Of a DNA stretch of 64,000 bases, positions 1 to 3,000 are shown piece by piece. This DNA is from Candidatus Omnitrophota bacterium (lineage in GTDB: Bacteria; Omnitrophota; Gorgyraeia; 2-01-FULL-45-10). The stretch's first letter is position 1. Each line of letters opens with the position of its first letter. The position numbers are program-made. The stretch is taken from positions 65,856 through 129,855 of the forward strand of contig JAPLME010000011.1 of assembly GCA_026387175.1 (NCBI GenBank), written 5' to 3'.

Positions 1-3000
1 ATAATGTAATCGATATCACAGAATCTAAAGTCAGTTATGATATTAAGACGGCCGAAGGAGAGGACCTTGTTGTCACGGCAGATTACGCTTCGGGTTCGGC
101 GAGCCCCGAAATCGAAAATATGGATATATTCCCCCGGAATTCTATAAATGAAGGAATCAAGGCGTTTACGGTCACCACAAAAGAAGGCGTTCCTATCGAG
201 ATCCAGTACGCATATAGCGGCGGTGAGCGCGTCGGAGTAAAGATCTCCACGAAACCGTCCCATCCGTCTTCTGATTCGGAGTATGCTCAAGTCCTGTCGG
301 TCGAAAGCAAGGGCGGATATATTATTAAGTTTATGTTTGTCTGGCAGGGTAAGGACTTAAAGGAAGTCAGGGTAGAGCCTCTAGTCAATCCATTTGCCGC
401 ATGAAGGCTACGATATCTCCCGGCGTATACGGTAGATCTTCTTCAAGGACTCCAGAAATATTACCACTACGAGCGCGATCATTATTATCGAGAGCGCCGC
501 GTTCATGTTTCCCTGAAAGTTATGCTTGGGCAGGTAATTATCGATGACATTCATAATCCCGGCAACGATCGTTGTCACGAACATGAATATCGCCGGAACG
601 AATGTTATGAGGCCGTAGTACCATCTCTTAGAGTGTTTCAATATATATACCGTCCCGACCGATAGCGCCAGCGTCGCCAGGAGCTGGTTCGCCACTCCGA
701 ACATCGGCCAGATAGTAGTGATATCTCCATTATAGACCAGGTAACCCCAGAGAAAGCTGATTATCCCGCCGCTTAAAATTATCGTCCACAGCCTCCGGCT
801 GTTCCATCTGGGACTCGCGGTCTTTATCAGTTCATCGACGATATAACGCGCCACGCGCGTTCCGGTGTCAACTGTAGTCAGTATAAAGAGCGCTTCGAAC
901 ATTATAGCGAAGTGATACCAGTATCCCATAAGGTGCTTCATGCCGGGTATCGATGAAAGTATCAGCGACATCCCCGCGGCGAGTGACACCGCCCCTCCGG
1001 TGCGCCCCGACAGGACCTCGCCCGTCATCTGCTCTATCTGCGGGAGCTGTGAAATACTGAGCCCCATTTTATGGAATACATCTACGGGCACATTGATGGC
1101 AAAATAATCGGCCGGTATCAGTACGGTGGCGGCGATGAGCGCCATTAACGAAACGACCGCTTCCGTGAGCATCGCCCCGAACCCGATCATGCGGATGTCG
1201 GACTCCTTGTTGATCATCTTCGGGGTGGTGCCTGAGGCTACGAGAGAATGAAATCCGCTGATCGCGCCGCAGGCTACTGTAATGCATACGAACGGCCATA
1301 CTTTTCCCGGTATCACGGGCCCGCCTCCGTGGATGTAAGGGGTTATCGCCGGCATACGAAGCTGAGGGTTGACTATGAAGATGCCGAGCGCCAGAAGCAA
1401 GATCGTGCCGATCTTCATGTATGAGCTTAAATAATCCCTCGGGCAGAGAAGCAGCCATACCGGCAATATGGACGCTATCAATCCGTAAATAGGCAGCATT
1501 ATAGAAAGCGCCGGTTTTGAGAACAGGAAGAAATGGCCGAATCCCGACCTGGCCAGAGGCTCCCCTAAAACTACGCCGAGGATCACGAGCGTCACGCCGA
1601 TCAGAGAGGCCTCTATGACTTTGCCGGGCCTGAGCCTGTACATATATAACGCGACGAAGAATGCTACGGGGATCGTCATGGCTATGGCGAATGTGGCCCA
1701 TGCGCTCTCGTTAAGCGCGTTTACCACGACTAGCGCCAGGCCTGCGAGAGCCGTGATTATAATGAAGAGTATCGCGAATCCGGTAACAAACCCCGCGGTT
1801 TTACTGACGTATTTGCGCGCGAGGCGGGTGAGCGAAAGCCCCTTGGTCCGCACCGAAGCGAAGAGTATGACCGTGTCGTGGACGGCGCCGCCGAGTACGG
1901 CGCCTATCAATATCCAGAGAAACCCCGGCAGGAAACCGAACTGCGCCGCCAGGACCGGCCCGACCAGGGGACCGGCGCCCGAGATGGCGGCGAAATGGTG
2001 GCCGAAGAGCACGAACCTGTTTGTGGGATGATAGTCGCGGCCGTCTTTGAATGTGTGAGCGGGTGTTTTCGCCTCGTCATTTGCGACGAGCACCTTGGCC
2101 ATAAGGAACTTCGCGTAGAAACGGTATGCCAGGGCGAATACCAGTAGCGCGATAATGAGAAGTGTCAGGGCGTGCATAATTATATTACGATAATTTAAAA
2201 GGCTTTCAATGTCAAGGGCAGATTTTTCGGTCGCAGTGCACAAGCAGGGTGCTGTTACCCATGAATTTTTTAGGGGTCCTGCCGCTCTTTCGCCTTTTTT
2301 CCTATTCGAGGCTGTGTCCGACTCTTGCGCGTAGAACTAGTCGATCGTGACAAGCCCCACTACGTACCGCCTCTTATTCGAAAAAAGGCTGGAAAGAGCG
2401 TCACCCCTAAAAAATTCCTGCTCATGCGTCCTGCTAGGTAAGGCCGAAAAATCTCCCGGTGGGGTGAGTAGAGAGTGAGATTGGAACAGGAACCCATATA
2501 ACCAGGTCTAGGCAGAGGTTGCTATGGCATCGCTATAAGCCCCTGGTAGACCGGAAGGGCAAAAGATGATACAATATGCGGACAATAGAGAAGGATGGGA
2601 TTTCCTTGAAGACTATTAAGATGATATCTGTAATCTGTATTGCGATGGCGCTTGCCGCGGGACCTGCGGTATCGGAACAGGATACCGCGAAAGAGCCGCG
2701 GTTTGATTACAATAATATGAGACAGGACGAGCTGATGCAGATTATGAATGTCCTGGAAACCCAGGCCGGCACCCTGAAAAAGAACCAGGCGAAATATAAA
2801 CGCGGCGTCAATCCGGAATATGAAGAGATCCAGAGTAAGATAGAGGAGCTTGAGGGAGAGCGCGAGGCGGCATACAAGAAACTGTCCGAAAGATGGCAGG
2901 AGGGCGATTTAGCGTCAGGCAAGCCCCGTAAAGATAATGCGGAGGGGTCAGCAGCCCGATGAATCTTACAAGTCTTATAATGAAGGGCCTGACCTCCAGG

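Follow-up and report, generated by a model that had tools for sequence, protein, structure and literature searches.

Two non-coding blocks in a Candidatus Omnitrophota genome as probable copies of an interspersed family of foldback repeats

Two intergenic regions of a Candidatus Omnitrophota bacterium (assembly GCA_026387175.1, contig JAPLME010000011.1, positions 65,856 to 129,855) hold related non-coding elements, which are the subject of this report. The whole stretch of 64,000 nucleotides (nt) that was analysed is called the window, and coordinates refer to it unless another locus is named. The first element, copy 1, lies between cstA, encoded on the minus strand, and a gene for a small secreted protein, with a GH3-family gene after it; copy 2 is flanked by lpxI and a hypF-like gene. 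An earlier note, made from the sequence alone, had placed them in these same contexts and described them as homologous blocks of ~215 nt with a covarying internal hairpin, matching no recognisable family of non-coding RNA (ncRNA). All the conserved blocks it listed are found in both regions, and both internal hairpins are present as written. Homology is borne out by a shared 31-nt 3' block, GTGGGGTGAGTAGAGAGTGAGAYTGGAACAG, with two exact occurrences in the window (2459-2489 and 59089-59119, both on the plus strand) and a chance expectation of 0.00. The regions are thus homologous, paired and covarying as proposed, but the unit is larger, the conserved blocks are themselves paired and the element is multi-copy. 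What did not hold is the picture of a discrete ~215-nt ncRNA with one covarying internal hairpin; found instead was a foldback repeat of 220-330 nt whose interior is a mosaic and whose presence at orthologous sites varies among relatives. Both blocks are, in our judgement, probably copies of one interspersed family of non-coding foldback repeats which, within the sampling, is confined to a narrow clade of Candidatus Omnitrophota.

The full units, at 2220-2489 (copy 1) and 58865-59119 (copy 2), both exceed the blocks first noticed. They follow a single plan, in which a 12-nt base stem (AGATTTTTCGGC / GCCGAAAAATCT) encloses an imperfect hairpin of 200-300 nt and is followed by an unpaired purine tail, GGGGTGAGTAGAGAGTGAGATTGG. 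In both window copies the outer repeat closes an imperfect hairpin of 220-235 nt, after which come a 6-nt linker and the tail; owing to the tail, the unit is asymmetric and has an orientation. The giant hairpin of copy 1 occupies 2220-2454 of the plus strand. Its outer 12-nt inverted repeat is represented by AGATTTTTCGG at 2220-2230 with its complement at 2444-2454, and its base stem by AGATTTTTCGGTC (2220-2232) paired with GGCCGAAAAATCT (2442-2454). The core, which corresponds to the block of the earlier note and is here termed module C (2260-2420), is built of helix H1 (2260-2277/2403-2420), helix H2 (GCTCTTTC/GAAAGAGC) and helix H3 (GCCTTTTTTC/GAAAAAAGGC) with a TG bulge; it carries a conserved internal loop, CCTGCC opposite GTC, and the motif CTTGCGC in its apical part. 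Linker and purine-rich tail fill 2455-2489, the tail proper being 2461-2484. Copy 2, also on the plus strand, has a hairpin at 58865-59084 whose outer layer is degenerate, with the head AGATCTTTCGG (58865-58875) overlapping the TAG stop of lpxI (58864-58866) and the 3' base AGCCGATAATCT at 59073-59084. Its module C (58884-59026) comprises H1 (TCATTTTCCGGGT/ACCCGTAAAATGA), H2 (GCAAGATC/GATCTTGC), the same CCTGCC/GTC loop and an apical hairpin GCGCAGGGTTTA...TAAACCCATCCTGCGC; linker and tail follow at 59085-59119, the tail itself (59091-59114) differing from the consensus by one mismatch.

The conserved blocks are therefore base-paired arms, TTTT..GGGGTCCTGCCGC..GCCTTTT pairing with AAAAGGCTGG..GCGTCACCCC..AAAA. 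In copy 1 the 5' arm reads TTTT-GGGGT / CCTGCC / GCTCTTTC / GCCTTTTTT and is met by AAAAAAGGC / TG / GAAAGAGC / GTC / ACCCC-AAAA, so that the internal hairpin of the earlier note is the tip of a hairpin of ~150 nt. Single-sequence folds, and an otherwise spurious database match, show that together the blocks make up both arms of a single long hairpin. No Rfam 15 covariance model reached its gathering threshold at either copy in a scan of the whole window or in eight other copy-bearing loci, in keeping with the earlier impression that no known ncRNA family is involved; the best candidate of a permissive scan, plant MIR5380 (30.2 bits against a cut-off of 150), was a spurious match to a long hairpin and the rest was noise. 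Folded as single-stranded DNA (ssDNA), the hairpin of copy 1 reaches -55.8 kcal/mol, with a z-score of -8.5 against shuffles, and that of copy 2 a z-score of -4.7; the full unit of copy 1, folded as RNA, reaches -101.6 kcal/mol.

Beyond the window, nine further copies, seven of them full and two partial or divergent, were found in metagenome contigs and in a related Candidatus Omnitrophota metagenome-assembled genome, making at least ten copies, with units measured at 227-339 nt. The earlier note had held that a lack of further homologues would reduce the blocks to a degenerate duplicated promoter or repeat fragment; since further homologues exist, this is not what was found. An exact tail scan recovered six copies on five contigs of the JGI metagenome Ga0315281. 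Gene callers sometimes predict a spurious open reading frame (ORF) antisense to the element, and a protein search with this ORF revealed two more copies, in loci L028 (an ENA assembly) and L029 (Ga0315281). A search with LpxI placed the organism in Candidatus Omnitrophota; the closest genome by LpxI (81% identity) supplied contig JAHJHP010000093, here L012, on which two related elements occupy other sites. When all nine full copies were used in profile searches, matches were confined to the known copy-bearing loci, and 15 loci taken from Omnitrophota, Desulfobacterota or Planctomycetota that are more distant gave none. The exact tail pattern had no match in 185,579 species-representative genomes or in viral contigs, and BLAST of plasmid and phage collections revealed no similarity to the elements.

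The base stem is kept in all further copies and the tail in most. Every copy has the head consensus A(G/A)AT(T/C)TTTCGG, and the hairpin ends 3' in CCGA(A/T)AA(A)T(C/T)T. The canonical tail, present in eight copies and predicted to be unpaired, is identical in six of them (window copy 2 has one mismatch and L009b three); in L028 and L029 it is replaced by related but different tails built on GGCGAAAATATC. A direct reading of the sequence shows a stop codon in each of the tail's three forward frames (TGA, TAG, TGA). No conserved ORF is found in the units, where longer reading frames are antisense and unconserved. A small ORF starting in the tail (GGGGTGA-N7-GTG) was considered and set aside, as its peptides range from 4 to ~25 residues and show no conservation.

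Pairing is maintained in the face of sequence change, as the earlier note had proposed from two copies. The 8-bp H2 occurs in four sequences, all of them paired: those of copy 1 and copy 2 given above, GCTGCCCC/GGGGCAGC in L008, L009 and L011, and GCTACCCC/GGGGTAGC in L029; L028 is the sole copy with a mismatch in H2, a single one. In a seven-sequence alignment of H1 and H2, the share of paired cells is 84%, compared with 72.6% in shuffles, double changes affect eight of 23 pairs, and none of 500 shuffles attains any of five measures; controls with slid partners gave pairing of at most 54.5%. Within the young L008-type subfamily, two changes are fully compensated (H2 of L029, and GCTACG/CGTAGC to GCTGCG/CGCAGC in L011) and two are uncompensated. 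The internal loops stay constant, with CCTGCC opposite GTC and a small bulge (TG or T) beside GGC.

What the base stems enclose is a mosaic of palindromic modules, nested in one to three layers and shuffled among copies. One outer layer, TTTACTTTC..TGCTTTCGCTT, is common to L009, L010, L011, L028 and the 5' arm of L029; another, CCCTTGCGGnGTGGGTG, is shared by L007, L008, L012b and the 3' arm of L029. The outer arms of L029 are thus of different types, so that this copy is chimeric, and its outer part is poorly paired. Module C is the core in copies 1 and 2 as well as in L008, L009, L011, L028 and L029, and the cores of L007 and L010 are unrelated to it. Over 146 nt L012b matches L007 (E = 1e-26); it continues with an additional palindrome of 38 nt that has no counterpart in L007. 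At several loci long hairpin modules also lie 3' of the tail, including one in L010 with z = -11.5 and one in the window at 59246-59365, and modules of this downstream type are found nested within the base stem as well, for example in L012a. In the window, further repeat modules absent from L012 were inserted along with copy 2 at 59120-59476 (plus strand). They include a 15-bp palindrome, TCTAACCTGGTTAGA, at 59125-59139, which occurs in tandem in L007, and a CAAAAGACCGRCCCTGTARCTAGA...GAACCATAACTTCGG module at 59373-59443 that is 90% identical to positions 2944-3014 of L010. The picture is one of several families of palindromic modules, nested within one another and clustered together.

The repeat families travelling with the main one are the palindrome TCTAACCTGGTTAGA, a GGCGAAAATATC... 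motif resembling the 3' base of the main element, a giant hairpin marked by 'GTAGCGACTnTnGTAAAATCTTGATACTTCTAGGCGATATA', and the CAAAAGACCGRCCCTGTARCTAGA...GAACCATAACTTCGG module. Their sites are window 59120-59476, L007 2605-2720, L008 ~7100-7230 and ~6881-6916, L010 2689-3020, L029 5880-6130 and L012 2272-2640.

Comparison with relatives gave two pairs of filled and empty sites. In the window, 650 bp separate the lpxI stop from the hypF start, and in L012 the two are 40 bp apart; the last ~35 bp can be aligned, including a TATAAT 8 nt ahead of the ATG, and the extra ~610 bp, which begin within the stop codon, consist of copy 2 and the further modules. Conversely, the window has an empty site at 45669-45675 (plus strand), where a 317-aa transketolase-C-like (E1-beta-like) gene meets an ispE-like GHMP kinase gene as TAG-t-ATG. 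The orthologous junction of L028, whose proteins there are 91% identical to those of the window and whose orthologue of the 317-aa gene has Pfam Transket_pyr/Transketolase_C matches, holds ~520 bp at the point corresponding to 45671/45673, opening directly after TAG with a family member that begins with AGATTTTTCGG. The elements are insertions, without visible target duplication. A TA target duplication of the Tc1/IS630-like kind was considered; it fits one L028 junction only if the upstream gene loses its stop, and it misfits copy 2.

Copy 1 lies at a break in synteny. In the relatives L030 and L033, the place upstream of the small secreted-protein gene is taken not by cstA but by ThiF and a 164-aa gene; since the upstream genes differ while this gene is kept, copy 1 marks a rearrangement breakpoint. 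An attempt to derive an empty-site boundary for copy 1 from these relatives gave no clean result, as the upstream genes differ. The cstA gene is divergent in the window, and ThiF and the 164-aa gene lie on the same strand in the relatives (window 2178-2620; L030 3900-4060; L033 1880-2010). The small secreted-protein gene has an extended -10 (TGATACAAT) kept in relatives, and probably starts at TTG 2606 and not at ATG 2576.

The position of the elements is equally regular. Ten copies follow a co-oriented upstream gene, and in nine of these the head lies 0-9 nt from its stop codon (~10 nt in the tenth, L012a), overlapping the stop in copy 2, L007 and L009. Copy 1, with its divergent neighbour cstA, is the exception. 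Every copy has the orientation of its downstream gene, and in all nine loci (9/9) the element strand is the G-rich strand, with a GC skew of +0.09 to +0.135. Promoter-like hexamers occur just outside the units: the -35 of cstA lies at a distance of 5 nt from the copy 1 head, and promoter-like pairs are found at 2547-2575 (TAGACC-17-TACAAT) and 59480-59508 (TTGTTA-17-TATAAT). A sigma-54 promoter, suggested by eye by GG-N10-GC downstream of both window copies, was dropped as absent from L010 and the other copies, and an ECF-type or outward -35 in the tail (TTGGAA / GGAAC) is unsupported, spacing and -10 partners being inconsistent among copies. On L009, a contig of 1267 nt read on the minus strand, a lone gene of 264 aa, by eye an FkbM-type methyltransferase, stands cassette-like between two copies of the same orientation (a tail at 1264-1241 and a full copy at 371-58).

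In seven Logan contigs, which stem from independent samples and match the window at 100% identity, the sequence breaks off within elements (the ends of L001-L006 correspond to window 58922-58927 and the start of L027 to 2386), as would be expected of a repeat or of sequence that is hard to read through. The elements systematically break up the short-read assemblies of this organism and coincide with synteny breakpoints, which makes them relevant to binning and to comparisons among Omnitrophota genomes. The same strain occurs in the sequencing runs SRR20698638 and SRR25046533 and in the ERR153021xx-ERR153022xx runs.

[quoted passage not shown] The units would spread as non-autonomous mobile DNA, recognised by an enzyme encoded elsewhere that acts on the folded single strand and not on duplex terminal repeats. 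Such recognition would explain why pairing is selected for in diverged subfamilies, why the ends are asymmetric, why duplications are missing and why the strand is fixed. New palindromic modules would tend to land inside or beside older ones. Copies near stop codons are probably transcribed along with the upstream gene, as part of the 3' end of its mRNA or of the stretch between cistrons, because nine of ten start within 9 nt of the stop and no terminator lies between. By analogy with Correia and ERIC elements, a duplex of 100 bp or more might then block 3' exonucleases or be cut by RNase III (PMC10969869).

Among known systems, hairpin MITEs co-transcribed with their neighbours include Correia in Neisseria, ERIC/IRU in enterobacteria and Chunjie in Geobacter; Chunjie sits within an operon that it leaves unbroken, Correia hairpins are cut by RNase III, and Correia duplicates TA (PMC10969869). 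The elements described here resemble MITEs in being non-coding, multi-copy, shorter than 400 bp, intergenic or inter-cistronic, and present or absent among relatives; their inverted repeat would likewise give a long hairpin transcript, and they are able to insert into each other. They depart from Correia in that no target-site duplication is seen. They have a perfect 12-nt inverted repeat, but the conserved unit runs on for 30-35 nt beyond its 3' half, with a conserved tail of 24-31 nt, and the repeat seems not to be terminal on that side. Unlike hairpin MITEs, they are paired over nearly their whole length, with an interior that is a mosaic of nested palindromes instead of one conserved sequence, their orientation is strictly fixed, and no parent insertion sequence (IS) for them is known from the genome fragments available.

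REP units measure 20-40 nt and REPINs ~100 nt, with a conserved GTAG-type 5' motif; they go with RAYT (Y1 HUH) transposases, whose genes the repeats flank, and the BIMEs of E. coli belong beside them. The present elements share with these the nature of extragenic palindromes placed after stops and between co-transcribed genes, the mosaic association with short motifs, selection for a single-strand hairpin and the lack of target duplication. The unit here is far longer, the bases ahead of the head vary and include no 5' tetranucleotide, and there is no sequence similarity; copy number appears low (two per 64 kb) and no RAYT gene is seen in the genome fragments at hand. As regards palindrome-associated elements derived from IS200/IS605 (PATEs), which require a fixed target of 4-5 nt 5' of the left end and have a small sub-terminal hairpin at each end, the likeness lies in asymmetric ends, absence of duplication, strand-specific insertion and a presumed reliance on folded ssDNA. 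In contrast to PATEs, eleven left flanks share no tetranucleotide (merely a T in six of eleven), there is one giant hairpin, and no tnpA or tnpB lies nearby. The msr-msd part of retrons differs as well, since the downstream genes (small secreted protein and GH3-family enzyme, hypF and others) have no reverse transcriptase domain. Bacterial hairpin repeats are well known, and the family described here fails several defining features of each named class.

Several observations weigh against a non-autonomous mobile repeat. The sample comprises about ten copies from perhaps four populations, and the module C alignment seven sequences, five of them close relatives. No direct repeat indicating target-site duplication is seen at the junctions of either filled/empty pair, a comparison in which both insertions are composite and the genomes are 9-19% apart at the protein level, and no conserved target sequence was seen at the insertion sites. 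As the filled sites are composite, with modules that arrived together or stepwise, the true ends of one unit are not defined. The covariation could reflect arm-to-arm gene conversion within a palindrome instead of selection. No transposase domain occurs in the flanking genes that were checked for a transposase or other partner enzyme, all of them from genome fragments. Finally, the conserved tail and internal loops exceed the obvious needs of a selfish hairpin and hint at a function. Together with insertion next to stop codons, the unpaired tail and the loops are odd features that keep functional-RNA and recombination-site readings alive.

The best-surviving alternative, to which we give a minor though real chance, is a genuine multi-copy family of structured RNA, with the 24-nt tail as seed or protein-binding site and the hairpin as a scaffold for stabilisation or processing. 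Each copy would be expressed, by itself or as an operon's 3' untranslated region or spacer, and differences in copy number would come from the duplication of a regulator that is useful. Covarying pairs around constant loops, a mostly identical and unpaired tail, an orientation that always matches the downstream gene and the lack of any known family that accounts for the elements are all in its favour. Yet the minus strand folds as well as or better than the plus strand, and mismatches between the arms show no excess of plus-strand wobble (31 G-U against 41 A-C, no strand bias, in a crude count from a global arm-to-arm alignment). Furthermore, no promoter-like site was detected ahead of the head or inside the units and no terminator-like site inside the units or after the tail, and the tail has no complementary target within the 64-kb window. 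An RNA of this kind also sits poorly with the other sequences that replace the tail in L028 and L029, with the wholesale swapping of interiors among copies, and with the element's absence from orthologous sites in relatives. As a new stand-alone ncRNA gene the blocks are probably a false lead, and their apparent covariation must be read within a family of palindromic repeats.

A small chance is left for something newer than any of the named classes, either an unrecognised hairpin-dependent mobile element or a set of host-recruited RNAs sharing an identical 24-nt single-stranded seed. The mobile version could combine a long folded strand and tail with duplication-free, single-orientation insertion at stops and growth by nested palindromes; what moves it could be an enzyme, or else an intermediate of RNA or ssDNA, so far without a link to any known transposon class.

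We regard as slightly less probable still a site acting at the DNA level, a folded strand or cruciform that serves recombination or binding in the manner of attC or BIME/REP, with head and tail recognised by protein. Integron attC sites are about 57-141 nt long, carry R''/R' core sites (RYYYAAC ... GTTRRRY) and occur in cassette arrays. As in attC, an imperfect palindrome is conserved in structure above sequence, unpaired bases are conserved, the orientation is fixed, and the element begins at or in the stop of the preceding ORF, as attC does behind cassette ORFs; moreover, the FkbM-like gene of L009 is flanked by two copies, both strands fold symmetrically and the strand bias coincides with GC skew. 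However, the ends are AGATTTTTCGG ... CCGAAAAATCT, without R''/R' cores, and the unit is two to four times longer than attC. No arrays beside an integrase occur and no integrase is seen among nearby genes; the neighbours are core operon genes (lpxI, ispE-like, glmU region), and what differs in both filled/empty pairs is the element on its own, not a gene together with its site, so that it moves without genes. The idea that the likeness arose by chance, or by one local duplication of promoter DNA free of structural constraint, would suit a window with just two copies but is practically negligible given the 31-nt block, at least nine further copies on other contigs, covariation above all shuffles and folding z-scores of -4.7 to -8.5.

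The elements are apparently the first interspersed repeat family documented in the uncultured phylum Omnitrophota; the papers searched on Omnitrophota with inverted repeat, MITE or palindrome contained nothing relevant and described no such family. Their combination of near-complete self-pairing over 220-330 nt, nesting, an asymmetric tail, stop-adjacent insertion without duplication and strand bias points to a mobilisation system that recognises single strands.

Further features of the window lie outside the elements. The 'hypF' gene downstream of copy 2 (59517-60647, plus strand) encodes 376 aa only and matches the C-terminal Kae1-like domains of HypF, without the acylphosphatase, zinc-finger and YrdC parts; the ORF at the same position in L012 (10845-11975) is of 376 aa too. 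TATAAT ends 8-9 nt before the hypF ATG, with no Shine-Dalgarno sequence (window 59480-59519, kept in L012 at 10815-10847), an arrangement that suggests a leaderless or near-leaderless transcript. Between hypC and hypD, an ORF of 554 aa (60855-62519, plus strand) with a signal peptide and overlapping stop and start codons has no Pfam or NCBIfam match; it looks like a gene inserted in the hyp operon, because L012 has hypF-hypC-hypD without it. In addition, a tRNA-fMet(CAU)-like gene at 23228-23935 (plus strand), not called by ARAGORN, is split in the anticodon loop by a group I intron of ~630 nt, with the 5' half GCGGGGTGGAGCAGCCTGGTAGCTCGTTGGGCTCA at about 23228-23262 and the 3' half ...CATAACCCAAAGGTCGTCCGTTCGAATCGGACCCCCGCTACCA ending at about 23935. 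The Rfam RF00028 core of the intron lies at 23663-23857 (54.8 bits), and its ORF (23264-23707) encodes a PD-(D/E)XK endonuclease (PF11645, E = 2e-42). Presumably this intron resembles the cyanobacterial tRNA-fMet intron that encodes I-Ssp6803I.

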